Positions 2,801 through 28,554 are shown, numbered from the stretch's first letter. The stretch is DNA of 47,956 nucleotides from Candidatus Methanomethylicia archaeon (GCA_038845975.1 JAWBQF010000021.1:1-47956), one strand, 5' to 3'. Notes: generated by a model not told the origin, from the sequence alone. Numbers and translations are program-made.

Positions 2801-2904
2801 GGGCCCGTAGCGCAGTATGGAAGCGCGTCGGCCTGAGGGTTTTGACCTGGCTAACGGATGAGGAAGAAAGCCGGTGGTCCGGGGTTCAAATCCCCGCGGG
2901 CCCG
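2801..2904 (+). tRNA. tRNA-Arg(GCG) with two introns: 34/35 (2836-2854) and 37/38 (2858-2868)
   Basis: Acceptor GGGCCCG/CGGGCCC-G, T-arm CGGGG-TTCAAAT-CCCCG; BHB GGCC/GGCT with bulges TG|A and AA|C; removing both introns gives TCGGC-CT-GCG-GA-GCCGG. Confidence 0.85.
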
Positions 2905-3661
2905 TACGATGTTAAGCTCACTTCTAGGTTGTTCAATCTCCAATTATTTGTACTTATATTAAGCTTATTATAAGGTAATATTGTCTATAGTATTAGGATT
3001 AATGAATTTAGATGATCAATAGCATATTAAGATAAAGCAAAATTGAAAAAGAAAGACTACTCTATTTCTCACTCTTTGTTGAGAGATGAAATTAGACATC
3101 ATTCTTTATAGTAACTTTTAGGGTAACTATTGGTCTACATCAACTGTAAAGATGTAGTATAAGTATTTTAAGTTATTTTGTTAAGTTCCAGTCTTAATTT
3201 GATGTACTTTTACCAATTAATAACTTGCCAAATTTTATTTGAAATATTATAATATTTTTGAATAAGCTCTTTATTGGTTTACGTATTTGCCATGAAACGG
3301 GTCTTTGTTCTTCTTTTAACAACTTCTGGTTACTGATTATTTGTTTATTCTTCTTTCTTTAAGAGTTTCTCTATTTTCTCTTTTGTTCGTTTATTTTCCA
3401 AATAGCTCGTTTCCTAAATTTATATCGATTCTCCAAGTCCTTTATAAGACTTGGATCTGATAAGTATTTTTGGTAGGTAACTACTCTAATACTCATTATA
3501 AATCAGTAATTGGATTATAACAACATATAAGTAATTACCTCAACTTATAATCATAAATAACTTAAAACATGTAAACATATACTTAGTATTAAGTTAGCAA
3601 AGTTACCATTAATTAAAACAGAAATATTTAAAAGTATTTCCTAACATAACCTAAGTCAAAG

Positions 3662-4096
3662 GTGATTGATTTGAGTGTTAGAGGTAAACTTGCATCTGAG
3701 TTGGCTTCACTTATAGACAAGCAAGTTACAGTTAAAACTACTTTAGGGGATATATTTACTGGAAAAGTTGTTGCAATAGAATTCCCTGAGTTTCATGTTT
3801 GTTTAGCAGATGTTATTGATGGAAATGGAGAGAAGCATCCTAGAGTAATAATTAGAGGTGAAGTGATTGCTGAAATATTTAGAAAGGAAAAACCATTTGA
3901 TTTAAAGGGATTAGCTGAAAGGCTTGAAAAGTTATTCCCAAACATGGTAAAGTACTATGAGGAGGCTAGAGTAATAACTATCATGGATAGAGTTAGAGTT
4001 ACTGAGCAAGGTGTTGTTGAGGGAACAGGATTAGTAGCTGATAAAGTTAAGAAAGTTTATGATGCCTATGTAGAGGAGTTAAAAGAAAAAGCATAG
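3662..4096 (+). CDS. Sm-like (Lsm) RNA-binding protein with C-terminal domain, SmAP3 type
   Basis: Sm1/Sm2 motifs (LIDKQVTVKT..G..FTGKV; RVIIRGEVIAEI) plus C-terminal alpha/beta extension; true start may be TTG at 3671 after GGTGA. Confidence 0.85.
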   Translation: MIDLSVRGKLASELASLIDKQVTVKTTLGDIFTGKVVAIEFPEFHVCLADVIDGNGEKHPRVIIRGEVIAEIFRKEKPFDLKGLAERLEKLFPNMVKYYEEARVITIMDRVRVTEQGVVEGTGLVADKVKKVYDAYVEELKEKA

Positions 4097-4102
4097 AAAT
4101 AT

Positions 4103-5728
4103 ATGAAATACGATATTGACAATATTTTTGAGCTAAGACACAAAGACCTACTTGGTAGAATAGGAAGACTTAAGACAAGACATGGTATAATTGAAACTCC
4201 TACTTTGCTTCCTGTTATCAATCCATTAAATCAAATAATAACTACTAATGATTTATATTTTAAGTTTAAAGTTAAAGGTATTATAACTAATGCTTACTTA
4301 TTAAGAAAATATTTCAAAGAACAAGCTATAATTCAGGGAATTCATAATTTATTAAATTTCAAAGGAGTCATCATGACTGATTCAGGTGCATATCAAATAT
4401 TAAGATACGGTAGTATAGATGCAGATCCTGACGATATTGTTTTATTTCAAAAAAATATAGGAAGCGATATTGGAGTTATTCTTGATATACCCACTGGATG
4501 GAAAACTGATAGAAAATACGCTGAATACACTGTTTTAGAAACATTTAAAAGAGCTAATAATGCAACTCAACTAATAGATGGAAGTGATATGCTTTGGGTT
4601 GGGCCACTACAAGGCGGTAAGTATATAGATTTAATTGAATATTCGGCAGTAAGGATGAGAGAGTTACCATTCCATATTTATGCTCTAGGAAGTCCAACAG
4701 TAGTTATGGAGCAGTATCGTTATGATCTTCTTATCGATATGATATTTGCAGCTAGAAAAAACATACCCCCAAATAGACCACTTCACCTATTTGGTGCTGG
4801 GCATCCATTTATGTTTGCTATAGCAATAGCGCTAGGATGTGATATATTTGATTCTGCATCTTATGCATTATATGCGAGAGATGATAGATATATTACAGAA
4901 TACGGGACAATAAAGTTTGACAGATTAAATTACCTGCCTTGCACATGTCCAGCATGTAATAAAGCATCTATTGATGAATTACGGCAAATGGATAAAGAAA
5001 GCAGAGAGAAAATTTTAGCAGAACATAATCTATACATATGTATTAGTGAAATCAATAGAATTAAACAAGCAATCATTGATGGCAGATTATGGGAATTTAT
5101 AGAAATACGTTGTAGAAGCCACCCATCACTCATGAAAGCATTAATAAAATTCAAAAAGTATTTAACATATCTAGAAAGAAACACTCCGGTTAGTAAAAAG
5201 AGAGGAATATTCATACTCGATATGATAAGTCTAAATAGACCAGAAATTTTCAGGTATAAAAGATGGTTAATTAAACGCTACAGTCCTCCTGCGGAAAAGG
5301 ACGTATTAATTTTAGTACCTAGTATCAATATGGAAAAGCCATATCATAAATCTCCAATAATAAAGAAAATCATAAGATATATAGATAAAGTCCTAAACAT
5401 AGATCGTATAAGAGTTCACATATGTGTATACGATTTACCATTTGGTGTGATTCCATTGGAAATCGATGATATTTATCCAGTTTCGCAACATGAAACAGCT
5501 ATAGAAGCTACTTATAACGGTAACCTTAGAAAAAATATGGTCTACCAGATAGTTAAATTTATAAATAAATTTAAAAAAAATTATAAGTACTACCTAATAG
5601 TAACTAGTAATATATTAAATGAAAAACATATAGATTTCATAGAAAAAACATGTAAAATTAAAGTAAAAGTTGTAAAAAGTTATAATGATTTACTTAGATT
5701 GAATTTGCCTCATCTTCTTGGTAAATGA
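4103..5728 (+). CDS. tgtA: Archaeosine (tRNA-G15) tRNA-guanine transglycosylase
   Basis: IETPTLLPVINP, IMTDSGAYQ, HLFGAGHP, GCDIFDSASY, Zn site CTCPAC...H; no C-terminal PUA domain evident. Confidence 0.93.
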   Translation: MKYDIDNIFELRHKDLLGRIGRLKTRHGIIETPTLLPVINPLNQIITTNDLYFKFKVKGIITNAYLLRKYFKEQAIIQGIHNLLNFKGVIMTDSGAYQILRYGSIDADPDDIVLFQKNIGSDIGVILDIPTGWKTDRKYAEYTVLETFKRANNATQLIDGSDMLWVGPLQGGKYIDLIEYSAVRMRELPFHIYALGSPTVVMEQYRYDLLIDMIFAARKNIPPNRPLHLFGAGHPFMFAIAIALGCDIFDSASYALYARDDRYITEYGTIKFDRLNYLPCTCPACNKASIDELRQMDKESREKILAEHNLYICISEINRIKQAIIDGRLWEFIEIRCRSHPSLMKALIKFKKYLTYLERNTPVSKKRGIFILDMISLNRPEIFRYKRWLIKRYSPPAEKDVLILVPSINMEKPYHKSPIIKKIIRYIDKVLNIDRIRVHICVYDLPFGVIPLEIDDIYPVSQHETAIEATYNGNLRKNMVYQIVKFINKFKKNYKYYLIVTSNILNEKHIDFIEKTCKIKVKVVKSYNDLLRLNLPHLLGK

Positions 5729-6181
5729 TAAGTTTCTGTTTATGTTATGATTTTAAATGCTCTATTATTAAAGCTAACTTATTAGTTCCTTCATATATCA
5801 TATAGACCAGAATAATAAGTTACTATCCACCAGAAATGTAAGGATGCTAAACTATGACAGGTTTTATAGTAACCATATAACATAAGTAACATATTTTTCT
5901 TCTTACAAACTATAATGTTCTATTTTCCATAAAAGCAAAGTTTTATGTCTGCTTCTACGTTAGATCTGCAAGTCAGCGGCCCATAGAATTGTTAGTAAGG
6001 AATAAAAGAATAGTTCCTGATTTGAGAATAATTAAGTCTAGTAGTCAATTAAATAATATACATAATTTAAAATCAACAATAAGCAAAGAATTTATAATTA
6101 AAGTCTGAATTTACATAAACCTAAAGTTTAGAGAAAAATTTAAATTTGTAACCTCAATAATTCTAAGAATTTGGTGGAAGT

Positions 6182-6415
6182 ATGCCTGAACTTTCTCTAG
6201 CTCCGATTGATAGACTTATGAGAACGGTTGGTGCAGAAAGAATAAGTGATGAAGCCATCTCAATTCTGAGAGAAATATTAGAGGAAATGGCTAAAGACAT
6301 ATCAAGACAGGCTATGGAACTAGCTAAGCATGCAGGCCGAAAAACAATTCTCGCTGATGATGTAAAACTTGCAGCAAAATATGTTTTGAGAAGATCTTGG
6401 GAAGTCCCGCCATAA
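6182..6415 (+). CDS. Archaeal histone (HMfA/HMfB family)
   Basis: ELSLAPIDRLMR..GAERIS..A, LAKHAGRKTILADDVKLA histone fold; GGTGGA RBS. Confidence 0.95.
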   Translation: MPELSLAPIDRLMRTVGAERISDEAISILREILEEMAKDISRQAMELAKHAGRKTILADDVKLAAKYVLRRSWEVPP

Positions 6416-6636
6416 TTCAATTCTTTAGTGCACTCATATTATGAATGATTCAATAGTATTTAGTTGCACAACCAAAATCTTAATGATTTTCTGTAAGCTT
6501 TAGATATGAAAGTACCCATAGTTAATGGTTTAAGTTCACAAGAGATCTTACAAATAGAAAACTTAATAAGCCAGTTCTATTTTCTCTTTTTAGTCAAATT
6601 ATAAATGAAATGTAAAAACATCTATTGGTGATTATT

Positions 6637-8310
6637 ATGGCAGCTCCAGCTCAAGCCCAACTTGCTCAAATTGGAGGTGTACCTGTACTAATACTTAAAG
6701 AAGGCTCACAAAGAACTGTTGGAAGAGAAGCACAAAGATCAAATATTTTAGCTGCTAAAGTTATCGCTGAAACTATAAAGACAACTCTTGGGCCTCGAGG
6801 TATGGATAAAATGCTTGTTGACAGTCTTGGAGATGTTACAATAACTAACGATGGAGCTACTATACTTAAAGAAATAGATATTCAACATCCAGCAGCTAAA
6901 ATGCTTGTTGAAGTTGCTAAAACACAAGATGAAGAGGTAGGAGATGGAACGACCACAGTTACTGTTTTAGCCGGTGAATTACTGAAACGAGCAGAAGCTT
7001 TACTTGATAAGGAAGTTCATCCTACAATAATAATAAGTGGTTATAGAAAAGCTATTGATAAAGCTCTTGAAGTTCTTGAAAAAACAAGTATAAAGGTAAG
7101 TCCGGATGATGTCGATACACTTATTAAAGTTGCTAAGACAGCTATGGGTAGTAAGGCCATAGGTGGATATAAAGATTATTTTGCAAAACTAGCTGTAGAA
7201 GCTGTTAAGAAAATAGTTGTTGAACGTGACGGTAAACTTGTAGCAGATGTTGATGATAATATACAATTAATAAAGAAACAAGGTGGAGGAGCTTTAGATA
7301 CAAAGTTAATTGATGGAATTATAATTGACAAGGAAGTTGTGCATGCAGGAATGCCTAAGCGCATTGAAAATGCAAAAATAGCATTACTCGATTGTCCATT
7401 AGAGATTGAAAAGCCAGAAATAGATGCTGAAATTAGAATAACTGATCCTGAAGAAATGAAAGCATTTCTTGACGAGGAGGAAAAGATGCTTAAACAAATG
7501 GTGCAAAAAATAAAATCTGTAGGAGCTAATGTTGTTTTTTGCCAGAAAGGAGTTGATGATATTGCTCAACATTATTTAGCTAAGGAAGGAATACTAACTG
7601 TTAGAAGAGTAAAGAAGTCTGATATGGAAAAATTAGCAAGAGCTACTGGAGCAAGAATAGTTACAAATATTGAGGATCTTACTCCATCCGACCTTGGCGA
7701 ATCTGGTTTAGTTGAAGAACATAGAATAGGTGAAGATAGAATGGTCTTTGTTGAAAAATGTAAGAATCCACGTGCAGTCAGCATATTAATTAGAGCTGGG
7801 CTTGAAAGAGCGGTTGATGAAGCTGAACGAACATTAACTGATGCATTAAGTGTTGTTTCAGATGTTATTGAAGATGGGAAAGTAGTTCCAGGAGGTGGTG
7901 CTATAGAATTTGAAATTGCAAAGGAATTGAGAGCCTTTGCTCCTACAGTTGGGGGAAAAGAACAATTATCAATAGAAGCTTTTGCAGATGCATTAGAGGA
8001 AATTCCAAAAACACTAGCTTATAATGCTGGGCTAGATCCTATTGACATTTTGGTTGAAGCAAGAGCAAAACATGAAGAAGTCGGTGGCTTTAAATATGGT
8101 GTTGATGTATATAGTGGAAAAGTTGCTGATATGCTCCAATTAGGAATAATAGAGCCCACATGTGTAAAACGTCAAGCAATAAAATCTGCAGCAGAAGTAG
8201 CATCCATGATATTAAGAATTGATGATGTAATAGCTGCAGGTAAAATAGAAAGTAAGACACCAACTTCTAAAAAGGAAGAAGAGGAAAAGAGTGAGCCATC
8301 AGTAGATTAA
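6637..8310 (+). CDS. ths: Thermosome (group II chaperonin) subunit
   Basis: [33 protein letters not shown]; ATG 6637 follows GGTGA. Confidence 0.97.
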
Positions 8311-8312
8311 TT

Positions 8313-8552
8313 ATGAGTAACACTTTAAACAATCTTTTTATAGCTATTGTTAAAAAGCCTCTATTACGTGGTAAACAAAAGCCTAAAAGCTCCTTCAAAA
8401 AAGGTAGAGGATTTAGTTTACTGGAAATAAAATCTGCAGGATTAACTATTGCAGAAGCAAGAAGACTTGGTTTACCGGTGGATAGTAGAAGAAGAAGCAT
8501 CCATAATGTGAATATTGAAAAGCTTAAACAAATTAAGGTAAATGTTAACTAA
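8313..8552 (+). CDS. rpl13e: 50S ribosomal protein L13e
   Basis: KGRGFSLLEIKSAGL...ARRLGLPVDSRRRS.H..N. Confidence 0.9.
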   Translation: MSNTLNNLFIAIVKKPLLRGKQKPKSSFKKGRGFSLLEIKSAGLTIAEARRLGLPVDSRRRSIHNVNIEKLKQIKVNVN

Positions 8553-8556
8553 TACT

Positions 8557-10002
8557 TTAATGGTTTTTCTCAGCTAGGATTGTTAGAAATTTATCTATAA
8601 CTTTTTCTGGAGCTTTGATTTCTTCAAGTTTTGCTATAGACTCAATAGTCAATGGTAGATAAAGAATAATATTAGGTCCTGAAATCCTTACAGTATTCGA
8701 ATCAATATAATCTATTAGCCATTCACCATTTGTTCTGCAAATATTTTTGAAGATCATATTACTATCCTTATTTAATGAGTAAATTTCGTTATTATTAGTT
8801 GCAATAGTGTAATTACTTTCCTTATCTACACATGTTTGTCTGACCCTATTTTTTATCAGTTTTAATTTATTGTTGATTATTGTAATGATGTAGCATCTTT
8901 CTTTAATCTCTATTTTCCTTTTCTCCATTTTAAAAAATAATGGTTTAATTTTCGTTATTTTTCCCCATTCTTTAATAATGGCTTCCCCTCCTTTTAATTT
9001 TAAATTAACCACTGACGTATCATTGGGTGCTGTTGCAAATGAAATCCAAAGAGGAGCTCTTACTTTAATGGCTTTACTTATTAGCGAAGCTGAGGGAGTT
9101 ATCATAATAATCATTGCTCCACATTTTTGTACTTCAAGAATCCATTTCGTAAATATTGTGTCTTCTGTGGAAATTAAATTATGTGCCTCTTCAATTACAA
9201 TTATTCCACAAATCTCTTCTAAAGATTTTTCTCTTGAGAATTTTTGAAGAAGTTGCTTCAAAATTAATGCGTATCCTATTTTTTTCTCTGTTTCTCCTCC
9301 AGTTACAACAAACACTCCAGGATCTGTGAAACGGATTGAACGTCTTTCTCCTATAATTAAACTCTCAAGTTTTCTAAGTATTATTTGCTGCATTGTAGTT
9401 TCAGATATATTTTCATAATCAATAGCTAGTCGTTCTATCATTCTTTTTATGTCAAGAATACTTACTTCTGCTACTCCTCTATTACTTAAAGCTTTTAATA
9501 CACGTAGTAATAAATTCATTTGCTGATCCGTTAAGTTTAATGCTGTGCCTAAAAGATCTCTTGTTTCGATGATTTCCCCTTCCTTTTCAATAGGGAAAAC
9601 TACTGTGGATAAATTCATTTCATGACGTGGAAGACCTAGTACATTATATTCATCATACCAATCAAAGACATAAATATTACTTTTATTACTAAGCTTTTTA
9701 ATAATTCTTTGTATGAATCTTGTTTTTCCTGAGCTGGAAGCTCCTGTTACTAAAAGAAGTATTGGTCTGATTTCCAAAAAAACAGGTCTTATGCCTGAGA
9801 AACCGACTAGTAAACTGTTTTTAATTCTTAGTACTTTCAATAAAGCTAAAGTAACTACACCTACTAGTGTAAATATACATAGAAAAACGTAAGTATAGTC
9901 TAATGTAGTTTCATGTTTAAATATAAGTATGTATGTGATCAAGAGTGCAAAAACAATATACATTATGTAATCTAAACAATCATAATTCCTTCCCATTGTC
10001 AT
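8557..10002 (-). CDS. Membrane-anchored FtsK/HerA-superfamily (VirB4/HerA-like) ATPase
   Basis: Two N-terminal hydrophobic helices, Walker A GASSSGKT, VFDWYDEY motif, Walker B IIVIEEAHNL. Confidence 0.75.
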   Translation of the reverse strand: MTMGRNYDCLDYIMYIVFALLITYILIFKHETTLDYTYVFLCIFTLVGVVTLALLKVLRIKNSLLVGFSGIRPVFLEIRPILLLVTGASSSGKTRFIQRIIKKLSNKSNIYVFDWYDEYNVLGLPRHEMNLSTVVFPIEKEGEIIETRDLLGTALNLTDQQMNLLLRVLKALSNRGVAEVSILDIKRMIERLAIDYENISETTMQQIILRKLESLIIGERRSIRFTDPGVFVVTGGETEKKIGYALILKQLLQKFSREKSLEEICGIIVIEEAHNLISTEDTIFTKWILEVQKCGAMIIMITPSASLISKAIKVRAPLWISFATAPNDTSVVNLKLKGGEAIIKEWGKITKIKPLFFKMEKRKIEIKERCYIITIINNKLKLIKNRVRQTCVDKESNYTIATNNNEIYSLNKDSNMIFKNICRTNGEWLIDYIDSNTVRISGPNIILYLPLTIESIAKLEEIKAPEKVIDKFLTILAEKNH

Positions 10003-10432
10003 TTAAATATCTGATGCTACTAAAGGAAAAAATAGCTACTAGTTTTTTATTGATAAATAGTTTTGCTGTCATTTCCCCTTCATTCATATAAACTACAAAC
10101 TTTTATATTCTCATCTATCTGGCAAGCATATAAAATAATGCTTTACAATTATTTAATCTTGTTAATTTGCCATAAGGAAGATAACTTGCAAACTTTAGAT
10201 GCAAAACATTATAGTTGATAGTTTAATTCATGAGGATAATTAACAGTCAGAGAAGATTTAATATACTATGTCTAATTATCAATTCTAACCCTAAATTGAG
10301 ACTTGATTGGAAATATAGTTAGAGATCATATGCATGATTGAGTTCATAAATCTCTCACAAACTAAGCAAAGCTTTATACTTCGTTTAACAACATTAGTTG
10401 TTGATCATTTATCATAAAATAATTTTTCTTAT

Positions 10433-10562
10433 GCTTTGTGGCTTAATTCCGAAATTTTGCAAATTCAAGTTTATATAAAGTACGAAAAAGCTTAATAAAC
10501 ATTCCTATAACCATAGTATTTAATGATATAGATTACGAGAAATGAATATTAAGCCACAAAGC
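10433..10562. mobile_element. 130-bp MITE
   Basis: Perfect 15-bp TIR GCTTTGTGGCTTAAT/ATTAAGCCACAAAGC; flanking direct repeat TTTCTTA (10425-10431, 10564-10570). Confidence 0.85.
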
Positions 10563-11123
10563 TTTTCTTAATTTAAGAATTCTATGCTCATATATTGTTG
10601 GTTAATATAAAATGCTTGGCAATATATACTGGAATAAGATGTCCTTTGCTTGAACGTACCACCATTTTTAGATTTCTACATCATTTTATTATGATTCCCG
10701 TTAGGGTCTTTATATTATTTATGATTTAATTTTCTATGAATATCTACTTATTAGTAATGTATGGCATCATCCGAATGTCATGTAATATCATTCTTAATAT
10801 GCTCTAATGTTTTTATATTTACTGTCATGTATTTATCATGCTCTTAATGAAACCTCTAAATCTTTACTGTTTCTCATATCCTAATTTATCAACTATATGT
10901 GAGAATGATGCATAAATACAAACCGTTTCTTTTCTCTCAAGTTACATCTAGAAAAATAAGCTAATAAACTTAAGAACTCATCTGGAAGCTCTTTAAGTGT
11001 TGTTAAGACTTGATTAGGTTAGTAAGTTAACTACCAATAATTATGGAATTTTCAGACAAGCTATTAAAATTAAACAATTAAAATCCATGATTACCATCAT
11101 ACAAAGTGGAATAAATACAGAAA

Positions 11124-17289: not shown

Positions 17290-17383
17290 GGGCCGGTAGC
17301 TCAGTTTGGAATGAGCGCCCGCTTTGCAAGCGGGAGTTCAGTATTGTGACCCGAAGCCGCGGGTTCAAATCCCGCCCGGTCCA
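17290..17383 (+). tRNA. tRNA-Ala(TGC) with variable-loop intron 45/46 (17337-17355)
   Basis: GGGCCGG/CCGGTCC-A (G3:U70), CCCGC-TT-TGC-AA-GCGGG; BHB central helix CGGG/CCCG, bulges AG|T and AA|G, inner helix TCA/TGA. Confidence 0.93.
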
Positions 17384-17950: not shown

Positions 17951-17954
17951 GCAT

Positions 17955-19408: not shown

Positions 19409-19535
19409 TGGGGCCGGAGGGATTTGAACCCTCGCCCAACGGGTTTCCCTACATTATATGGTTTAATTTATTAATATGTCTATCTGGAGCCCGTCATCAT
19501 ACCTAGCTAGACCACGGCTTAGTGCTACTAATCCC
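19409..19535 (-). tRNA. tRNA-Trp(CCA) with introns at 3/4 (19519-19532) and 37/38 (19445-19483)
   Basis: 3' acceptor CGGCCCC-A requires GGGGCCG = GGG + 14-nt intron + GCCG; ACGGG-CT-CCA-G|..|A-CCCGT; T-arm GAGGG-TTCAAAT-CCCTC. Confidence 0.88.
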
Positions 19536-19792
19536 ACCCCATCTGGCCCTTAGGATATATTATATCATAAACTTATAAGTTTGTCGATTGTTGAAATAAA
19601 TCCTGCTAATTCATCTAACTAGATCCATTATTAAAGAAATGACAATTTACCTAATGCTAATACAGAACTTATAAGACTGAGTTAAGGATTTATAATAGTT
19701 TAAAAGCTAGTTGTTAATATTCAAATAGTAGACCCACGCGATTAGATTATTTTTATCAAAGAAACGCCTTCACTATATTAAATTTTTAAATC

Positions 19793-20911
19793 TTATTGTC
19801 CAATCCCCATAGTGTTCCCAATACCGGCTATAATTAATGTTGCACCTTTTGGATAACTTGTAACTATAGCTCTTATTTTCTCAATAATTTTATCGGCAGC
19901 ATCGAATATCTCCTTTTTCATAGTAGTTATGGCATCTTCTAGGGATTCCTTTACTACTAATGCATATATAGGAATCTTATGTTTTGTAGCTTCTTCTTCG
20001 ATTTTGTACTTTTCAGGTCCTGGATCTCCAATAGCTGCCCCAACTCCTTCGGCAATACTGCCTACCTCCTCTCCCTCTAATTTCATTGCAGCATCAACCA
20101 TCACTATCCCATCAATATTTCCACTTCTCATTTCAATAATCTTTGAAATAGCTTCTCCAGGTTTTCCAACAACTCCGCTTGGTCCCTCAGCTTTAACAAC
20201 AATTAGCCTTCTTCCTTCAAAGAATATTTCAGCTGTTACCGTATCTTCTGCTATTTTTTCATATTTTTGACCGTACATCAATTTAGCAGCAACAAGCGCT
20301 CCAATTCCATCTCCTATTGGCTGTAAATTAATAAATGAAGTAAGCGCATTGTAGTATGCTCTAGCATATCTCATAATTAGTGGTATAATCATTTCAAGCT
20401 GCATTAATATATATGGGCTTTTAGTTTTTTCACCTAGAATAAAATTATGTCTAACATACTTATATATTATATTTAAGACTTGGGCTATAGCCAAAAGATT
20501 TTCAAAGTTATCTATATCCTGTTTACTAGCTGTTGGCACTAATGATAATATGAATTCTCTAATTCTTTTTCTTTCAGTATTAAGTAAGTGCTCAAGTTTA
20601 CGTACGATTCCGTTTGGATCTAAATCTACTGGGTATATTGCGAAAAAATCGAGAAACATGTTCACTTTATTTGAAACTTCAAAATTATTACCGGCAACTT
20701 TACTTATTCTCTCTACAACTTGACTTGTTGCTTTAGTTGACATTTCAGTTAAAGCTCTTAATGCTTTTTTAATGCTCCATATCCAAATGATCATCTGGAG
20801 TTTATTACCAACTAAAATCCAGATAAGAAGAAAAGCAATAATGCTTAAGATATATTGTAATATTGAACTAAACCCAGTATCTTGACCTATGATTTGCTGA
20901 ATCACAGCCAT
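19793..20911 (-). CDS. DUF1512 family membrane-anchored protein
   Basis: PVDLDPNGIV.KLEHL, PIGDGIG, KAEGP...VGKPG, VDAAMKLEGE..G.IAEGVGAAIGDPGPEK, GIGNTMGIGQ. Confidence 0.8.
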   Translation of the reverse strand: MAVIQQIIGQDTGFSSILQYILSIIAFLLIWILVGNKLQMIIWIWSIKKALRALTEMSTKATSQVVERISKVAGNNFEVSNKVNMFLDFFAIYPVDLDPNGIVRKLEHLLNTERKRIREFILSLVPTASKQDIDNFENLLAIAQVLNIIYKYVRHNFILGEKTKSPYILMQLEMIIPLIMRYARAYYNALTSFINLQPIGDGIGALVAAKLMYGQKYEKIAEDTVTAEIFFEGRRLIVVKAEGPSGVVGKPGEAISKIIEMRSGNIDGIVMVDAAMKLEGEEVGSIAEGVGAAIGDPGPEKYKIEEEATKHKIPIYALVVKESLEDAITTMKKEIFDAADKIIEKIRAIVTSYPKGATLIIAGIGNTMGIGQ

Positions 20912-21128
20912 ACACCTTCAATATTATCATAGTTAATTTATTTACTGTCTTTATAAACTTTAAAGCTTAGGATATATATCAAACCCTGGTATACTACATT
21001 TATTTTTAACTTGTTGTAAAAACAATTTACTATATGCGATTTTTAAATAAACAGTATTTTTAATGCATTATGAGTTTTTGTAAACATTTTTATAAAAACT
21101 GTGACACCTAAATAGTATTGGTGTTACT

Positions 21129-21602
21129 ATGGGCAAGATCATAATAGCGCTTCATAATGTACATAGTGTATATAAGATTGTTGAAATTGCTAAGCTATGT
21201 GATGTATTTAATGTTGACTTACTTGTAATAAGCAGAGCAGTTGGTTCAGCAGCTCAGCAAGGAATATCTGAAGCTTCTAAGTTAATATTTAAAAGCAATA
21301 AGATATTGTTAGTAGTTAATGATTTAAAAGAAGCTATAGATCTTATTAAACCCTTTAAGGTATATCTATTATCGGCTAAACCATATGCCCAAGCCCCCCT
21401 TGATATAAATAATTTACTTAAAGAATTAAATCAAGAAGATATCATGATCGTACTTCCAGGAACAGATTTAGGATTTAGTAGAAATGAGTTAGCTCTAGGT
21501 GAGCCTGTTTTCTTAAAATTCTTGATTAATAAAGATCCAGGCCCTATTGCAACTGCAGCCATAATTTTATATGAAATTAAAAAAGAAAGCTTCATGGCTT
21601 AA
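21129..21602 (+). CDS. SPOUT-class putative RNA methyltransferase (COG4080/DUF2122, often annotated RecB-family nuclease)
   Basis: LHNVHS...EIAK, SRAVGSAAQQGI.EASKL.FK, DLKEAIDL, G...GFSRNEL.LGE. Confidence 0.7.
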   Translation: MGKIIIALHNVHSVYKIVEIAKLCDVFNVDLLVISRAVGSAAQQGISEASKLIFKSNKILLVVNDLKEAIDLIKPFKVYLLSAKPYAQAPLDINNLLKELNQEDIMIVLPGTDLGFSRNELALGEPVFLKFLINKDPGPIATAAIILYEIKKESFMA

Positions 21603-21864
21603 TTTCAAAATCCGTAGATTCAAATTTATGATAAGGAAAAGAAATCTTGATAAATGCCCCTAATAATAATATAATAATGTATGATAGCAGAAAAACATAC
21701 TAACATTAAGCCCAATTCATGAAAGATGTTGCTTGGATCTAGTGGGCTATGTAGGCTTAAGACTAGCGGTAACTCTAATATCAGCATAATGTACATAGTT
21801 TCCTAAATCATCACGTACTAAAAGTAAACCTCAAGGTTTATATATTTTTGTTGGTGTTTTTCTT

Positions 21865-21948
21865 GGGCCCGTCGTCTAGTGGTAGGACTTTAATCCTGAA
21901 ACCTGCCTTACACGCAGGAGGTCAGGGGTTCAAATCCCCTCGGGCCCA
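21865..21948 (+). tRNA. tRNA-Val(TAC) with intron at 25/26 (21889-21900)
   Basis: GGGCCCG/CGGGCCC-A, CCTGC-CT-TAC-AC-GCAGG; BHB central helix TAGG/CCTG, bulges AC|T and AA|A, outer GG/CC. Confidence 0.92.
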
Positions 21949-22476
21949 TTAACAATCCCTACTAACTCTCTCAATAATAGCTTCAAGAACACGCTTAATA
22001 GCCTCATTTTCTTCATATTCCAAAACAGCTCCACATATCTGGCATTTAAAATTATTTTCATAAGCTTCATCAAAAGTCATTCGCATATGTTCTCTGTTAA
22101 TACATCTGTAGAAGCTATTTATCTTTTCATATTCAAGCCTCTCTTGAAGTTTTTTTAGCACATGTCTTTTCATTTCATCCATAAATTTCTTTAAATTATC
22201 TGGTTGAAGATACCATTGATATATGAACCATCCAGTTTCTTTATCTCTTACTCTCTTATAATATGCTAACTGGTTAGTATGTAGAAAGTAAAGTATTTTT
22301 CTAATAATATTTACCTTTAAATCGCTTTTTTGGGAAATTTCCATATCTGTTATGCCTGGACTACTATATACCATTTTTGCTATTACCACAGCAGGTTCGC
22401 CAATGATGACTTTTATTATTTCTTCGAAATCCTTAGGCAATGTTTTTAAATCCTTTTTAGTAGGCACTTCGATCAC
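21949..22476 (-). CDS. tfe: Transcription factor E, alpha subunit
   Basis: wHTH with IRKILY.L, RVRDKETGWFIYQW, LQERLEYE, Zn ribbon (YRC...FKCQICG). Confidence 0.93.
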   Translation of the reverse strand: MIEVPTKKDLKTLPKDFEEIIKVIIGEPAVVIAKMVYSSPGITDMEISQKSDLKVNIIRKILYFLHTNQLAYYKRVRDKETGWFIYQWYLQPDNLKKFMDEMKRHVLKKLQERLEYEKINSFYRCINREHMRMTFDEAYENNFKCQICGAVLEYEENEAIKRVLEAIIERVSRDC

Positions 22477-22529
22477 TTTATTTTTATAATCTCCACTTTA
22501 ACATTTTTAAATATTATGCTTCATCTATT

Positions 22530-23707
22530 GGACGTGGCAACTTAAGGGGTTGTATAAGTTTTGTTGTTACTTTTTATGTTGGTATTGGTGTTTGTAGTAT
22601 CTTGTGGTTTTGAGGGGTAGGGTTTTGTTGGGTGTTGAGGTTCTAGTATAGTTTTTATATTAGATGTTTGAGGAGTTGGAGTATTATTTGGTTATGGGTT
22701 TCTGGATGTTTTGGTAGGTGGGTGAATAGGTTTAGGGGTGAGTGTGGATCATTCCTAGGGGTATAGATGGGACTGGGGTTAATGCTAGTGTAGATTATTG
22801 AGTTATTAGGTATTTAGGGGTGAAGTAATAGTTGTGAAGGTATTTAAGGGAATATTATGATGTTTAATTATTAATGAGGTATTGTGATGAGTATAGGTTT
22901 TCATTGATATTAGATTATGGCTTCAAAACCTCTCAAGAAATAAACCATCATCGTTAAAATTCATAGGAGAATTATAGTAGATAAGATACTCATCATTCAG
23001 TAAAGAACAAAATACCCAACATCACATCAAACCAATAAATAAAATCATAGATAAGAGAAAAATGAATACTAGAACTCATAAACTATTCATACAATCTACA
23101 ACCACCTAGAAAATGAGCTTAAGCTGCCAGGTCCCATCTATTTGTCTTATCAACTTTAAATTTTTTATATCACTCTCCTAACATGTTTCAATAACTTCTT
23201 ACATCTATTGTGTGTATTAATCACGCTTCTAATAAAACTTTTAAATACTCTGTTGTCTCTCCAATATTTTATACTTAATAATTTGATAGTGTTTAGTCTA
23301 TTAGCTTTAGCAATACATACTAGCATTAGATGATCAATGGTAGCTATTTCAGCATCAAATTCATCCTTCGATACTTTAATAGTATGTGTACATCAATTAT
23401 ATGTGAGAATAACACGTGAATCTATGTCATCCTCCCTTAAAATGCAATCCATACAGTAAGTGAATCAATTCTAACATTATATTTACCAACATAACCTTTC
23501 TAACCAATAATAATTAATAATTCATCAAATCTATAAATTTACTTATAACTGGCGATCAATAGCTAATGTTCTATTCATCCTTAAGCTACAATCAGAGAAC
23601 ATAAACCTACAAATAGAATGATATTTTTAGTCTATTATAATCCATAATCACTAACCATGCAAATACAGAGCAAACATCCCAAATAAACCTCTAAAGTTGG
23701 CAAGACA
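22530..23707. mobile_element. Old, heavily decayed 1.18-kb IS relic
   Basis: Degenerate TIR (14/20) GGACGTGGCAACTTAAGGGG vs TGTCTTGCCAACTTTAGAGG; 8-bp TSD CATCTATT/CATCTGTT; homologous segments at 17955-18349 and about 36220-36530. Confidence 0.75.
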
Positions 23708-23822
23708 CATCTGTTTTCCTTAAAGATTTTTAAGAGGCGTTGTTGGTAATTAACTAGTTACTAGAGCATTCTAGACTTTAGGCTTCTTTTATGGTTGTAT
23801 CCTCAGTTTATTGATTTCCATT

Positions 23823-24344
23823 TTATGGCATGTAGTTGTCATTCCTACTTCCCTTTTTCAATTCAACAATATCCCCCAAAGTTATACTTTGATTAACATG
23901 TAATTCCTCATACTTTGCATCAATAGCTACTTGCTCTTGGGGTATTAAGAGCGTTATCCTTAAAGCTCTTTCGAGTTTTTTTGCTAAATGTATGTCTGGT
24001 TTTAATTTTCCACTTTCTAATCTCTTTATAACAGATTCTTTTTCATTAATTTGTCTTGCTAAAATTTCAGTAGTTAATCCTAGTTCCTCTCTTTTGCTTT
24101 TTATCCTTATAGCATAATCTTCTGCAATATCATACCTATTTTCGTACAGCCTTGTCTTTGTCATGATGGATTTAGTGTTCTTGCTCAATATTTTTTCAGA
24201 AAATTCTTTTCTCTCTTGCTTATGTGTACTATAAGGCACACCAGTTTTAGCACATCTTTGGCAAGCAATTAAGGTAGCCCCATCAATCATTATTTTTTGC
24301 GAATTACCATGTATTCTACATCCACATATTTCACAACACAGCAT
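23823..24344 (-). CDS. mbf1: Archaeal multiprotein bridging factor 1
   Basis: CEICG...C..C Zn ribbon, HTH (LARQINEKESVIKRLESGKLKP), TLGDIV tail. Confidence 0.92.
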   Translation of the reverse strand: MLCCEICGCRIHGNSQKIMIDGATLIACQRCAKTGVPYSTHKQERKEFSEKILSKNTKSIMTKTRLYENRYDIAEDYAIRIKSKREELGLTTEILARQINEKESVIKRLESGKLKPDIHLAKKLERALRITLLIPQEQVAIDAKYEELHVNQSITLGDIVELKKGSRNDNYMP

Positions 24345-24415
24345 AAAATCAACTAGGTTAATTTTTACAATACTATACTATTTTTAGAGTTATAAATTTA
24401 ACTTTAGTACAGTAA

Positions 24416-24970
24416 GCTTTGTTAGCTTTATTTCTTCCTTATTTATGGTGTTGGTAGGTCTAATGTTATCTTATTGGGGTGGGTGCTTTGTTTGTTTTGT
24501 TTATGTTGTTGTATGTTTGTTATCTGGTATGTCTTTAGAATTTTGTTTATTTTGTAGGGTTGTATTTGTTTTATGGTTTATCTTAAGCTTCTATTGAGTT
24601 TAATAAGGGAATTCTCTACATATGTTGTAAGCATACTTACATTCCTAACATTAAGATAATAAGGGCTATCTATGATTCTAATATAATTGTAATTGTAGTA
24701 CATAACAATTATTTACGGAGATAAAATATTAAATCTAATGAAGTATGTGATTTAGAGGTTAGAATTAATTGAAAAGAATACAATATAGGATAAATAAACT
24801 ATTCAATAATTACATAAGGCATGAAAGATAAATGTGGGGTGAACACGTACTCATGATTATGAAATCAATAGTATATCTAACGAACATGGATTACAAGAGG
24901 ATAAAGCTAAGAATTCATAGAAACACAAAACCAAAATAAAGATAATAAAACATAGTTAAATCCACAAAGT
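24416..24970. mobile_element. Family-A MITE, full length (about 555 bp)
   Basis: Ends GCTTTGTTAGCTTTA...TTAAATCCACAAAGT; body collinear with 36786-37283; right arm shares 59 identical bp with 69-127. Confidence 0.75.
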
Positions 24971-25143
24971 CTATATAAGGCTTGTTAACTTAATAAAATT
25001 GCTAACAAGTTTCTAATTTTGGACCTGACAATTTGAGAAGGAGGCTATGATATACTAAGTTGTCATATCCTTAATTTTGCCGGAATGCTTATAAGAAACA
25101 ATTAAAAACTATGTTAAAATATTTAAGATTAAAGGTGAGATAT

Positions 25144-26325
25144 ATGGGTGGCGCACCTGTAACAATAAAATATTTAATTAGAGCAGGAATAGAAATAAGT
25201 GGTATTGTTGATAAACCAGACGTTATAGGAGCAATATTCGGCCAAACTGAAGGATTACTTGGAGAGGATCTAGATTTAAGAGAACTTCAAAAAAGCGGTA
25301 GAATAGGCAGAATACATGTTGAATTAATTGAGAAAGGAGATAAATCACATGGAGAAATAGTAATCCCATCAGGTCTTGATAGAGCAGAGACAGCTTTAAT
25401 AGCTGCTTCCCTTGAAGTTATTGAAAAAGTAGGGCCTTGTGATGCACGGGTACATATAAAAGCAATAGAGGATATAAGAGAGGAAAAAAGAAGGAAGATT
25501 CTAGAAAGAGCGAAAGAACTCTTAAAAAAAATGAGTAGAGAAGCCATTCCAAATAGTAGGAAGCTTGCAGATGAAGTACTAAATGCTGTACGGGAGCAAG
25601 AAGTTATAAAGTACGGATCAGAAGAACTGCCTGCAGGTCCTGAAATAGATACATCTGATACAGTAATAGTGGTAGAAGGGCGAGCTGATGTTATTAACCT
25701 CATTAAGAATGGATTTAAGAATGTTATAGGAATGGGAGGAACAAGTATTCCGAAAACAATAATCGATCTAAGTAGGAGAAAGCACATCATAGCTTTTGTT
25801 GATGGAGATAGAGGAGGAGAACTTATTTTAAGAGAATTGTTAAAGGTAGCAGAAATAGATGAAGTTGCAATAGCACCTCCAGGTAAGGAAGTTGAAGAAT
25901 TAACAAATAAGGAAATAGTGAAATGTCTTCAGAATAGAGTACCTGTAGCAGAATACTTGCATAAGGATTCAATACAACTAGCTAAGCAACAAAAAGCACT
26001 TATAGAGGGAGAAATAAGCATTCCACAATCTATTATGACTCAGATAAAGGAGTTGGAAAACACACTTGAAGCTATACTTTATGACAATAATTGGAATATA
26101 ATACAAAAAGTAGCAGTAAGCGAGTTGCCAGAAATTATGCAAAAAATTCCAGAAGCCTATGCTTTAGCATTTGATGGCATAATCACTCAAAGAATTCTCG
26201 ACTTATCTGAGGATAAATCAGTAAAGTTAATTATAGGAGCCAAGCTTGGAAATATAGTGAAGAAGCCTTTAAATATTCAAATACTTACTTTTACTGATTT
26301 GAAAAAAGAAGAAAATAATAAATAG
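25144..26325 (+). CDS. dnaG: Archaeal DnaG (exosome-associated TOPRIM protein)
   Basis: VDKPDVIGAIFGQTEGLLG, VVEGRADV, AFVDGDRGG, FDGIITQR; ATG 25144 follows AGGTGA. Confidence 0.96.
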   Translation: MGGAPVTIKYLIRAGIEISGIVDKPDVIGAIFGQTEGLLGEDLDLRELQKSGRIGRIHVELIEKGDKSHGEIVIPSGLDRAETALIAASLEVIEKVGPCDARVHIKAIEDIREEKRRKILERAKELLKKMSREAIPNSRKLADEVLNAVREQEVIKYGSEELPAGPEIDTSDTVIVVEGRADVINLIKNGFKNVIGMGGTSIPKTIIDLSRRKHIIAFVDGDRGGELILRELLKVAEIDEVAIAPPGKEVEELTNKEIVKCLQNRVPVAEYLHKDSIQLAKQQKALIEGEISIPQSIMTQIKELENTLEAILYDNNWNIIQKVAVSELPEIMQKIPEAYALAFDGIITQRILDLSEDKSVKLIIGAKLGNIVKKPLNIQILTFTDLKKEENNK

Positions 26326-26344
26326 CTTAAAATTAAGACAACTA

Positions 26345-26782
26345 TTATAACCTAAGAATCATTATTATTGCATCTGAGTACTTATAATATCTCTTTATAA
26401 TACCAACAGGAATAAAACCAAAACGTTCGTAAAATTTTTTTGCAATATTGTTTCTACTGTCAACTTCTAACTTAATGATTTTAACTTTACTAGATTTAAA
26501 GCGTTTAATTAATTCTAACATTAACTTTGATCCATATCCCTTACACCTATAACTTGGATCAACAGCTATCGAAACAATATGTCCTTCTGATCTCTTTCTA
26601 ACAACTCCAATAATATAACCAATAATGAAGTTGTTTTCTTCAATGACGAGAAAGGTATCTGGAGATATAAAATGATAAAAGTAAAATAAGTACTTTGGAT
26701 ATGGTTCGTTAAAAGATAATGTCTCAATCTCATAAACACGAGCTAAATCTGTTAATTCAAATCTTCTAATAGTAGAAGCCAT
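26345..26782 (-). CDS. rimI: RimI/Ard1-family N-acetyltransferase
   Basis: GHIVSIAVDP.YR.KGYGSKLM, LEV...N..A..FYERFGF, RYY. Confidence 0.88.
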   Translation of the reverse strand: MASTIRRFELTDLARVYEIETLSFNEPYPKYLFYFYHFISPDTFLVIEENNFIIGYIIGVVRKRSEGHIVSIAVDPSYRCKGYGSKLMLELIKRFKSSKVKIIKLEVDSRNNIAKKFYERFGFIPVGIIKRYYKYSDAIIMILRL

Positions 26783-26788
26783 TATAAC

Positions 26789-27121
26789 CTAGTGAATTTG
26801 GTATTCATTTTTAATAACTTTACAAATGTGATGCATAACACTAGTAAGATTAGTGAAATCTATTTTACTCTCAACTATGTCTTGTGTAATTTTATTAACA
26901 GCATCTTTTACAAAGAATATAGATTCAAGAGCTGTAAGTCTTTTGCATCCTCGCTTTGATGAAAGATGATAGCTAATTGCTGGTTGGGTTGTTTCAAGCT
27001 TTTTAGCATCCTCTACTTGAGTAAAATTATATTTTTCAATTAGCTTTCGGGCTATTAATGCCCTGAATGCAGGTAGTATGTCTTTCACAATAGTTTCACA
27101 TAGTGGACGCATTTTTATCAC
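26789..27121 (-). CDS. HTH transcriptional regulator (COG2522-like)
   Basis: MRPLCE..VK.ILPAFRALIA..L, TQ....KL.TTQPAISY.LSSKRG. Confidence 0.8.
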   Translation of the reverse strand: MIKMRPLCETIVKDILPAFRALIARKLIEKYNFTQVEDAKKLETTQPAISYHLSSKRGCKRLTALESIFFVKDAVNKITQDIVESKIDFTNLTSVMHHICKVIKNEYQIH

Positions 27122-27192
27122 TAGTGTATTAGCATCATATTCAAATATAAATTTTAATAATGTAAATTTTTCAGTCTAACTTTATAAATTAA

Positions 27193-27290
27193 TGCGGGGG
27201 GTGGGATTTGAACCCACGAAGGCCTATGCCAAGGGATATCCCAAAATGTTCTTGAGTCCCTCCCCTTTAACCTATCTCGGGAACCCCCGC
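27193..27290 (-). tRNA. tRNA-Leu(CAA) with canonical 37/38 intron (27238-27250)
   Basis: GCGGGGG acceptor, AGGGA-CT-CAA-G|..|A-TCCCT, long variable arm, BHB helix CTCA/TGGG. Confidence 0.93.
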
Positions 27291-27366
27291 AAAATATTAA
27301 TCTTTTAAATAAAGATAAATTTTTCACTGAACTAAATTTATATTACTCTAAGAAAATAAGTAATAA

Positions 27367-27477
27367 GCCGGGGTCGCCTAGGCTGGTCTATGGCGCTGGA
27401 CTATCACAGACCAGACTCATAATCCTAGTCATAGGGTTGGATTCCAGTTATCGTGGGTTCAAATCCCACCCCCGGCA
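27367..27477 (+). tRNA. Elongator tRNA-Met(CAT) with introns at 32/33 (27402-27416) and 38/39 (27423-27442; 37/38 possible)
   Basis: GCCGGGG/CCCCGGC-A; BHB CTGG/CCAG with bulges AC|T on both sides; spliced arm CTGGA-CT-CAT-AA-TCCAG. Confidence 0.85.
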
Positions 27478-27522
27478 TCTATGAAACAACAAGAATATAA
27501 GAGTCTGTTTCCTATAGTTTCA

Positions 27523-27644
27523 GCCCCGGTGGCTTAGTCTGGTTAGAGCGACAGTATTAAAACCGTGAGCGCTTGGTATTTGGCACAAAAAGCGGTAGGT
27601 CCCGAGATAAATTAAGTACGGGAATTCAAATCTCGGCCGGGGCT
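27523..27644 (+). tRNA. tRNA-Thr(GGT) with three introns: 28/29 (27553-27569), 37/38 (27579-27590), 53/54 (27607-27624)
   Basis: GCCCCGG/CCGGGGC-T; after removal ACCGC-TT-GGT-AA-GCGGT, AGGTC, CCGAG-TTCAAAT-CTCGG; each intron has a BHB-like fold. Confidence 0.88.
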
Positions 27645-27990
27645 TTAAGCTTTAATAGGATTTTGTAGGTATGAGGCTTGGTCGATATACGCCGAAGTTA
27701 TATTTTTACACATCATATAACTACTAGACTAGAAATAATAATAATAAGCAGTAGTTAATATATTCCTAATGCTCAGGATGCCTATATGTTGTATCAGAAT
27801 ACCGTTTGTCTTCCATCATTATAATCCTTAAGAAGTGATAAAACCCTAATGAGATGGAACTATACAAGTATTGATAAGATTAGAATGTTAATATCTAATG
27901 TTCTAGTATTTTAAAAATTATATTATAAAATTAATTAAGAAGTTTTACGGTTAAGAATGTCTCTGATAACAATTTTAGAAGTATCGGTAA

Positions 27991-28064
27991 AGCCTCCGGC
28001 GGGATTTGAACCCGCGACATGCCGCTTACAAGGCGGCCGCTCTACCGTGCTGAGCTACGGAGGC
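27991..28064 (-). tRNA. tRNA-Thr(TGT), intronless
   Basis: GCCTCCG/CGGAGGC-T, GCCGC-CT-TGT-AA-GCGGC, GCGGG-TTCAAAT-CCCGC. Confidence 0.97.
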
Positions 28065-28441
28065 TAAGAAATAAAATAAGATGGGAAATATAAATCTTAA
28101 GCTAGTTATATGAGCTCTATAAACCTAAGTCTTATCCTACATTTTACCTCTTATTATAATGATAACAGTATTGTTTACAAACTTAAGCAAACAACTACCT
28201 GTACTTTTATGTCTAAAGTTCACAGAGCTTTGAAACTATGATTAAGTTTATTTAGGAGAACCTGTTTGTTTTAATCGTTTTCATGGTTTATATATTTATG
28301 CCTCATGTAATTTTAGGATTTCTGCTGTTATGTCGCATTTGTAGTTTTTCTAAGAACTCTGGAAATAATCTGAAAAATCATTAAAGAGATTTAACTACTA
28401 GTTTAAATAATAAAGTTCCAGACAAATCCATAAAAACAAGA

Positions 28442-28554
28442 TGGGACCGCGGGGATTTGAACCCCGGTCCCGGGCGTTTTCGGTTTCGCACCCGAAGCCC
28501 GGAGTCTTACCAGATTAGCCTCTAATCATAGTATTAGATCTAGCCTACGGTCCC
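28442..28554 (-). tRNA. tRNA-Pro(CGG) with introns at 15/16 (28515-28539) and 37/38 (28477-28490)
   Basis: GGGACCG/CGGTCCC-A, CGGGC-TT-CGG-G|..|C-GCCCG with perfect central helix TTCG/CGAA; D-loop intron helix GGCT/GGCT plus inner stem TCTAAT/ATTAGA. Confidence 0.88.

Follow-up and report, generated by a model that had tools for sequence, protein, structure and literature searches.

Nine transfer RNA (tRNA) genes lie between positions 2801 and 28554 of a 47,956-nucleotide (nt) contig from a Candidatus Methanomethylicia archaeon (GCA_038845975.1, JAWBQF010000021.1:1-47956; this whole stretch is called the window throughout), and eight of them are interrupted by insertions, 14 in total, with more than one insertion in five genes. 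We put at roughly 0.9 the probability that the nine loci are functional tRNA genes belonging to an uncultured member of the Thermoproteota from hot springs, whose interrupted transcripts would each contain one to three short, protein-spliced introns (Table 1). The insertions measure 11-39 nt, with a median of 16 nt and five of only 11-13 nt, and fall five times at position 37/38 and once each at 3/4, 15/16, 25/26, 28/29, 32/33, 34/35, 38/39, 45/46 and 53/54, so that nine non-canonical positions are in use. Deletion of the 14 segments by script converts all nine loci into sequences that ARAGORN calls as intron-free tRNAs of 72-85 nt with nine different anticodons (Arg-GCG, Ala-TGC, Trp-CCA, Val-TAC, Leu-CAA, a CAT tRNA, Thr-GGT, Thr-TGT and Pro-CGG). 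A preliminary description of this DNA had listed the same 14 introns in nine genes, eight of them interrupted and five multi-intron, and had counted at least eight non-canonical positions; our hand and script parses reproduce its list exactly and raise that count by one.

Gene finding and parsing

Most of these genes are poorly visible to general-purpose finders, and the earlier expectation that standard annotation would miss or miscall them is borne out. On the unspliced window ARAGORN detected two of the nine, and the Rfam tRNA model placed seven above its gathering score; the locus at 27523-27644 scored 27.0 bits, below the cut-off, and the one at 28439-28554 returned only a weak match in the transfer-messenger RNA (tmRNA) clan. 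With one exception the loci are 84-127 nt long, and in their Rfam alignments the anticodon loop, the D arm and the variable region are expanded by large insertions. All nine genes are collinear and contiguous in the window, that is, neither split nor permuted, and none of them encodes the 3' CCA; in ARAGORN calls many tRNA genes of two sister-family genomes (G002 and G004, introduced below) do end in CCA. The G+C content of the window's tRNA exons is 65% and that of the introns 34%.

The loci were parsed by hand and then with a script that enumerates cloverleaf-restoring deletions and ranks them on splice-site geometry. The script's top parse equalled the hand parse in six genes, and the Trp gene, with its split acceptor stem, and the Pro gene, with its unusual architecture, were parsed by hand. 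Two simpler procedures were tried and rejected: a parser guided by the cloverleaf alone, which could not place introns in loops and merged double introns into one, and a scan for the motif alone, which returned 40-135 candidates with a fully paired central helix per gene region and was too noisy to serve as a finder.

Table 1. tRNA genes of the window and their predicted introns, in coordinate order (n/4, paired positions of the central helix; outer and intron helices in base pairs)
Feature	Coordinates	Strand	Length (nt)	Details
tRNA-Arg(GCG) gene	2801..2904	+	104	two introns; Rfam 55.1 bits; spliced, 74-nt Arg(gcg) by ARAGORN
Arg intron 34/35	2836..2854	+	19	full hBHBh' motif; ends AA; central helix 4/4, outer 2, intron helix 4
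Arg intron 37/38	2858..2868	+	11	relaxed motif; ends AA
tRNA-Ala(TGC) gene	17290..17383	+	94	one intron; Rfam 59 bits; spliced, 75-nt Ala(tgc) with G3:U70
Ala intron 45/46 (variable region)	17337..17355	+	19	ends AA; central helix 4/4, intron helix 3
tRNA-Trp(CCA) gene	19409..19535	-		two introns; Rfam 34.7 bits, model positions 4-67 only; spliced, 74-nt Trp(cca)
Trp intron 37/38	19445..19483	-	39	ends AA; central helix 3/4, outer helix 7
Trp intron 3/4 (acceptor stem)	19519..19532	-	14	ends AA; helices draw on the 5' leader
tRNA-Val(TAC) gene	21865..21948	+	84	one intron; Rfam 53.6 bits; spliced, 72-nt Val(tac)
Val intron 25/26	21889..21900	+	12	ends AA; helix and 3' bulge only (bulge-helix-loop); central helix 4/4, no intron helix
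tRNA-Leu(CAA) gene	27193..27290	-	98	class II; one intron; Rfam 40.3 bits; spliced, 85-nt Leu(caa)
Leu intron 37/38	27238..27250	-	13	ends AT; central helix 4/4, outer helix 6
CAT-anticodon tRNA gene (elongator Met or Ile2)	27367..27477	+	111	two introns flanking a 6-nt micro-exon; Rfam 48.6 bits
CAT intron 32/33	27402..27416	+	15	ends AC; central helix 4/4
CAT intron 38/39	27423..27442	+	20	ends AT; central helix 3/4, intron helix 3
tRNA-Thr(GGT) gene	27523..27644	+	122	three introns; spliced, Thr(ggt) by ARAGORN
Thr(GGT) intron 28/29 (anticodon stem)	27553..27569	+	17	ends AG; central helix 3/4
Thr(GGT) intron 37/38	27579..27590	+	12	ends AA; central helix 3/4, outer helix 3, rising to 5 without the 28/29 intron
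Thr(GGT) intron 53/54 (T arm)	27607..27624	+	18	ends AA; central helix 4/4
tRNA-Thr(TGT) gene	27991..28064	-	74	uninterrupted in this assembly; Rfam 71.3 bits; also detected by ARAGORN
tRNA-Pro(CGG) gene	28442..28554	-	113	two introns; missed by the Rfam tRNA model; spliced, 74-nt Pro(cgg)
Pro intron 37/38	28477..28490	-	14	ends AA; central helix 4/4, outer helix 7
Pro intron 15/16 (D loop)	28515..28539	-	25	ends AA; central helix 4/4 (two G-U pairs), intron helix 6

Splice geometry, conservation and the rival explanations

The strict splice motif consists of two 3-nt bulges at the splice sites with a helix of 4 base pairs (bp) between them, and the relaxed motif of a helix with one bulge. Our geometry score counts pairs between two stretches of four bases, one in the exon and one in the intron, that end two bases ahead of the 5' and the 3' cut, respectively. 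By this measure the central helix is complete (4/4) in nine of the 14 window introns and 3/4 paired in the other five, compared with 1.8% and 13.4%, respectively, of 1146 control placements of equal lengths in the same genes. At the penultimate position A stands in every one of the 14, against 24.7% of control placements and an overall intron A content of 39%, and ten introns end in AA; the 14 penultimate A bases, the ten AA ends and the presence of several 3/4-paired helices had been reported in the preliminary description and were all recovered. Penultimate A is likewise found in 12 of 14 automatically parsed introns of G002 and is not peculiar to this lineage. An intron helix is absent (0-1 bp) in six of the 14, which thus represent relaxed forms.

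Comparison with related genomes provides evidence that does not draw on the motif. G001, the sole other genome of the genus, carries all nine window genes and all 14 insertions, and differs from the window in 51 of 251 intron columns (~20%) but in only 13 of 696 exon columns (1.9%), where two of the 13 fall within the Trp leader, which had been masked as exon, and one in the Pro trailer; introns thus diverge about ten times faster than exons. The contrast is visible within the Trp gene, whose 37/38 intron is 9 nt shorter in G001 and differs in many columns, whereas the exons match, and in whose leader a T>C change in G001 converts a G-U pair of the outer helix of the 3/4 intron into G-C. A second comparison used G002 and G004, which represent two other families of the same class and whose tRNA loci yielded a reference set of 77 mature sequences. 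Six of the window genes have compact references there (Arg, Ala, Val, Leu, CAT and Thr-GGT), and the orthologues match them at the junctions; for Arg, Ala, Val, Leu and Thr-GGT the predicted mature form shows no gap across its junctions, with identities to the compact G002 orthologues of 67/74 for Arg(GCG), both of whose junctions are gap-free, 76/85 for Leu(CAA) and 61/75 for Thr(GGT). When parses were ranked on similarity to same-anticodon references alone, the top parse of the motif ranking was returned for all six genes given both treatments.

The alternative that survives best, although we hold it to be unlikely, accepts the genes as real and split but takes several of the 14 boundaries, or their number, to be wrong: the double anticodon-loop introns might be single introns with another anticodon, the 38/39 intron a 37/38 one, or the 3/4 intron 28 nt long. 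Cloverleaf structure alone indeed cannot place introns in loops and favours one long intron, the parse margin of the CAT gene is small (21.1 vs. 20.75), and the second Arg intron has alternative placements that yield the same mature sequence. Against this, reference similarity computed without the motif chooses the same two- or three-intron parses for Arg, CAT and Thr, with the Arg 34/35 and Thr(GGT) 28/29 introns each in the top parse by either score, and the alternative anticodons are already supplied by other genes or would sit in mature loops unlike those of relatives. For the CAT gene, whose spliced product is a 76-nt tRNA with anticodon cat in ARAGORN, the two-intron parse has a reference score of 57, compared with 38 for the best parse giving another anticodon; the 38/39 placement of its second intron, earlier described as only probable, is also the best-scoring one, at 57 against 55 for the next.

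In the Trp gene the geometry (central, outer and intron helix) is 4,4,2 for a 3/4 intron of 14 nt and 1,0,1 for one of 28 nt; the longer reading was rejected on these values, and the preferred intron, of 14 nt, covers 19519-19532 and puts the 5' end of the tRNA at 19535. Genes with an acceptor-stem intron, at 3/4 or 7/8, show a further peculiarity in that the 5' acceptor strand is duplicated, in part or in full, within the 5' leader (window 19536-19549; C24:18463-18476; on contig C10, upstream of the match at 266-350), which creates two alternative 5' ends for one and the same mature RNA, the motif favouring the inner copy.

The Pro gene shares an odd layout with the compact Pro(CGG) gene of G004, namely a mismatched 11:24 position in the D stem, an anticodon helix of 6 bp and a variable region of 3 nt, as aligned by hand; the aligner itself placed three gaps there. 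Its end was corrected to 28442 from 28439, and a reading of 28442-28554 as Arg(TCG) was rejected given that layout and the presence of an Arg(TCG) gene on contig C3.

It is very improbable that the interrupted loci are decaying pseudogenes or assembly chimeras, with working tRNAs encoded elsewhere. The draft state of the genome (76 contigs, 93% complete, 4% contamination) and the two of nine loci below the Rfam tRNA cut-off could be taken to favour such a view, but a complete cloverleaf is restored in nine of nine cases, the exons are 98% conserved relative to G001 where the introns have diverged, and no anticodon is repeated apart from the expected CAT genes (initiator Met, elongator Met and Ile2), with two genes' anticodons unassigned. 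Furthermore, contigs from four independent DNA runs, belonging to four studies, are letter-identical over 27202-28017, an interval that spans most of the Leu gene and, at 27367-27644, the interrupted CAT and Thr-GGT genes in their entirety, so that the interrupted genes are not an artefact of assembly.

Least credible of all is that the segments are retained in the mature RNA as unspliced structural expansions, since, even though two D-loop insertions on contigs C5 and C50 form a small hairpin with no splice motif and motif-less D-arm insertions are described in the available part of a preprint, the window insertions interrupt the loop and the stem of the anticodon arm, the acceptor stem and the T arm, parts of a functional tRNA that cannot accommodate 11-39 additional bases, evolve some tenfold faster than the exons and fit the splice geometry in all 14 cases.

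Several observations nevertheless weigh against reading all of these genes as functional and spliced. The splicing itself we infer from genomic sequence; the 3/4-paired class, with five introns, is frequent by chance (13% of control placements); and where neighbouring placements yield an identical mature sequence the boundary was picked with the motif, which makes the motif statistics partly dependent on the parse. Minimum-energy folds give the expected central helix in five of 12 junction segments and are not decisive either way. The Trp gene is without a compact reference, and the Pro gene was parsed by hand, the script having failed on its unusual architecture. Beyond the window, the census presented below is partly hand-curated, with two genes left unassigned as to anticodon and a third as to its D-loop insert or inserts, and the genome contains two D-loop insertions without the motif.

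Intron load in the genome, the genus and the class

The Rfam tRNA model matches 29 loci in the genome, only seven of them of normal length, and seeding on the T arm and acceptor pairing added eight further genes. Of the 37 tRNA genes located, 31 (84%) are interrupted and 15 contain two or three introns; the genome total is about 48 introns, or ~1.3 per gene (46 if the two motif-less D-loop insertions are set aside), compared with 1.56 per gene in the window. Penultimate A recurs in 44 of the 48, and 34 of the 37 genes were given 34 different anticodon types, the initiator and two other CAT genes being counted apart.

To compare genomes we used the length of Rfam matches as a proxy for load, where the lower figure of each range omits matches of 84-88 nt, which are possibly class II tRNAs. 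Over-long matches number 20-22 of 29 in this genome and 15 of 21 in the congener G001, and in other families 13-16 of 45 (G002), 16-21 of 42 (G004), 14-19 of 38 (G003), 8-17 of 38 (G009) and 9-12 of 37 (G011). The proxy was preferred to direct intron counts because the uncurated parser over-splits some G002 and G004 genes, leaving its counts of 17 and 29 rough. The intron load of this genome is about two to three times that of the sister families and similar to that of Thermoproteales. For ten of the 14 window introns, G002 or G004 has a compact orthologue that lacks the insertion, and the Ala 45/46 and Val 25/26 introns are missing from the compact Ala(TGC) and Val(TAC) genes of both. The excess would most simply represent gains on the branch leading to the genus, losses elsewhere being possible; we propose that most of the load arose once the genus had separated from its sister families in the class, and that the high load is a property of the genus to which the sharing or copying of identical introns between isoacceptor genes contributed in part.

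Such sharing is evident in several isoacceptor groups, whose genes are near-identical save for the anticodon and whose introns are letter-identical. One 12-nt intron at 25/26 occurs in the Val(TAC), Val(CAC) and Val(GAC) genes (window 21865-21948, C55:318-401 and C50:12043-12142), one 19-nt intron at 45/46 in Ala(TGC) and Ala(GGC), the latter at C34:313-406, and one 11-nt intron at 37/38 in Arg(GCG) and Arg(CCG), the latter on contig C10; the Pro(TGG) gene on contig C43 has a related 30-nt intron at 15/16, the same position as in Pro(CGG). The identical introns point to recent duplication or gene conversion, as judged from these sequences.

The Thr-TGT locus holds the only uninterrupted tRNA gene of the window. 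A contig covering 27988-28600 in all four other DNA runs that were compared differs from the window only at this locus (27991-28064), where it has a 13-nt insertion behind 28026, exactly at 37/38, and an A>G change at 28030 that makes the anticodon CGT instead of TGT; the insertion ends in AA and has a 4/4 central helix when parsed by hand. This genome holds no second copy of the Thr-TGT gene or of the 13-nt insertion. On the strength of the letter-identical introns (three Val, two Ala and two Arg genes) and of the replacement of Thr-TGT by Thr-CGT in sibling populations, we tentatively raise the possibility that gain, loss or copying of tRNA introns continues in this genus. Were that so, these hot-spring populations would offer a natural system in which to catch the route by which archaeal tRNA introns arrive, between one strain and another; the strain difference at the Thr locus is material for the study of intron turnover and, in our view, the most interesting loose end of this work.

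Three genes elsewhere in the genome depart from the general pattern. The Leu-CAG gene at C5:88251-88346 and a CAT tRNA gene at C50:8071-8182 have D-loop insertions of 11-12 nt at about 20/21 that form a small hairpin (GGTCA, five bases, TGAC), with central helices of 1/4 and 3/4 and no flanking helices; they may be removed in another way or kept. The tRNA gene at C57:547-656 has a 35-nt variable-region insertion and a 7-nt anticodon loop, CTAGGGA, with an apparent AGG anticodon and hence A34, which would be unusual in an archaeon; its nearest references are Pro tRNAs, and Pro-CGG, Pro-TGG and Pro-GGG genes are all present elsewhere in the genome.

Splicing enzymes, host and comparison with known systems

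Typing of the EndA subunits, which had been proposed as a check on the intron calls, identified two paralogues in the genome, of 183 and 180 amino acids (aa), each matching both EndA domain families, PF01974 and PF02778, and together probably of the crenarchaeal alpha/beta type. For the 183-aa protein, the alignment with Aeropyrum pernix EndA (catalytic chain, 3P1Z_B; E-value 4.9e-51) is gap-free across the N-terminal two-thirds, and the alignments to 3P1Z_B and 3AJV_B contain a single 2-residue gap, near the C-terminus. Included in the gap-free part are what we take to be the crenarchaea-specific loop and the presumed column of the catalytic His; the protein has His at a column that holds Ala in the 3AJV chain. 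The 180-aa protein is nearer to the enzymes of M. jannaschii (E-value 6e-20) and M. kandleri (5e-21) than to the A. pernix structural chain (8.5e-4); aligned with 1A79 (M. jannaschii), it has Pro at what is presumably the catalytic-His column. An RtcB homologue is encoded at C28:13960-15267 (E-value 6.1e-175). All 12 genomes of the class with a completeness of 90% or more, the present one among them, have the same two EndA paralogues, and enzyme type is therefore not the explanation of the intron excess of the genus. Judging by the protein alignments, the endonuclease would have the ordinary crenarchaeal (alpha-beta)2 arrangement, and the very relaxed splicing endonuclease envisaged at first is not supported.

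We propose that the exon-intron junctions fold into bulge-helix-bulge structures, some of them strict and many relaxed to a 4-bp helix with a 3' bulge, that the (alpha-beta)2 endonuclease would cut both bulges, and that RtcB would then join the exons. At the relaxed junctions of the bulge-helix-loop kind, the six of 14 that leave no room for an intron helix, the 5' cut would fall in the loop closed by the central helix. Splicing would be ordered at least in tRNA-Arg, where the central helix of the 37/38 intron is 2/4 paired in the primary transcript and reaches 3/4, with an outer helix of 7, only once the 34/35 intron has been removed, so that the latter would leave first; pairing of the 11-nt intron in the Arg-CCG paralogue depends in the same way on prior intron removal.

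The host belongs, by its sequence, to the Thermoproteota but would fall outside the Thermoproteales, in another class by the labels of its relatives. The window encodes archaeal housekeeping proteins (thermosome, Cdc48, ABCE1, archaeosine TGT, SRP54, Pus10 and aIF5A), and the portrayal of an A+T-rich lineage bearing a histone and MttB stands, with a G+C content of ~32%, a histone gene at 6188-6373 and an open reading frame (ORF) for a 487-aa MttB homologue at 42380-43843. As a single marker, SRP54 is 92-93% identical to that of a Methanomethylicia-labelled metagenome-assembled genome (MAG), 60% to a Nitrososphaerota MAG, 56% to Culexarchaeum and 54% to a Desulfurococcaceae MAG, which places the nearest relative in the Methanomethylicia and not, as had been considered, in the Thermoproteales. 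No match to McrA was present in the genome (93% complete). Runs from four further studies, three of them labelled hot-springs metagenome, contain at least half of the sampled words from the tRNA cluster, and the one run compared from each of the four gave long identical pieces; no RNA run was among those listed for this DNA. Within the MttB ORF, at 43352-43454, Rfam reports a 43.2-bit match to PYLIS_3, the pyrrolysine insertion sequence of mttB; UCU stands at the start of the alignment in place of the model's UAG, and the 487-aa ORF is uninterrupted, which makes the product look like a non-pyrrolysine homologue. About 260 nt upstream of the Val gene, a 157-aa ORF (21129-21602, + strand) matches the RecB-family nuclease family DUF2122 (E-value 5e-27), and among the 32 window ORFs scanned none matched a Pfam family named as a homing endonuclease.

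Together, these results describe a known phenomenon, here real and well-supported, in a lineage for which we found no published report: our literature search returned none on tRNA introns in Methanomethylicia or Verstraetearchaeota (including Methanosuratincola, Methanomethylicus and Culexarchae), although GtRNAdb, SPLITSdb or the supplements of the preprint may list such genomes, and no paper on non-canonical introns in metagenome-assembled archaea. Lineages with a majority of split tRNA genes are few, Thermoproteales and two Asgard classes being those known to us, and the present one joins them. The results also bear on annotation, since finders that under-recover tRNAs to this extent (29 Rfam matches in the genome, two of nine genes by ARAGORN in the window) can make a genome appear incomplete or short of decoding capacity. 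The very short introns, of 10-13 nt, offer material on the minimal substrate of the endonuclease. The rise in intron number looks lineage-specific and the splicing enzyme unchanged, which fits the conclusion drawn for Asgard archaea, in the part of the preprint available, that presence of the enzyme does not explain intron accumulation.

The resemblance to Aeropyrum pernix EndA (PDB 3P1Z, 3AJV; PMC3241643, available in part) lies in the presence of two paralogues of ~180 aa, the first of which aligns to the catalytic chain; unlike in A. pernix, the second paralogue is closer to the M. jannaschii and M. kandleri enzymes than to the A. pernix structural chain. The endonuclease type itself is linked to non-canonical and multiple introns in the accessible portion of PMC4090602. 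For Thermoproteales, introns in 70% of tRNA genes are given in the available text of PMC11291895, and up to three introns per gene, at sites including 3/4, 25/26, 45/46 and 53/54 and with similar introns in different genes, in that of PMC4090602 (Yoshihisa 2014, which summarises Sugahara 2007/2008 and Fujishima 2010). This genome shares with them, on the latter account, the three-intron genes, those four sites, the relaxed motifs, near-identical introns shared between genes and the two-subunit endonuclease; it differs in that the host belongs to another group, its genome is A+T-rich (~32% G+C) and its introns are very short (median 16 nt). Positions 15/16, 28/29, 32/33, 34/35 and 38/39 fall outside the PMC4090602 list as far as that list could be compared.

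The preliminary description had further suggested an independent or extreme case of intron invasion. Independence holds only in part, since the lineage and Thermoproteales share a phylum, Thermoproteota, though the labels of its relatives put the lineage in another class; the load, while lineage-elevated, is not extreme, its 1.56 introns per gene in the window and ~1.3 in the genome comparing with 1.54 in Pyrobaculum calidifontis and 2.2 in some Asgard families, as quoted in the accessible part of the preprint. Asgard archaea resemble the present lineage in that most tRNA genes are interrupted, many of them at non-canonical positions and several times over, and are under-called by annotation tools, with the load confined to particular lineages; the Asgard archaea belong to another phylum and reach a higher load, with 92-95% of genes interrupted and 2.2 introns per gene, as against 84% and ~1.3 here.

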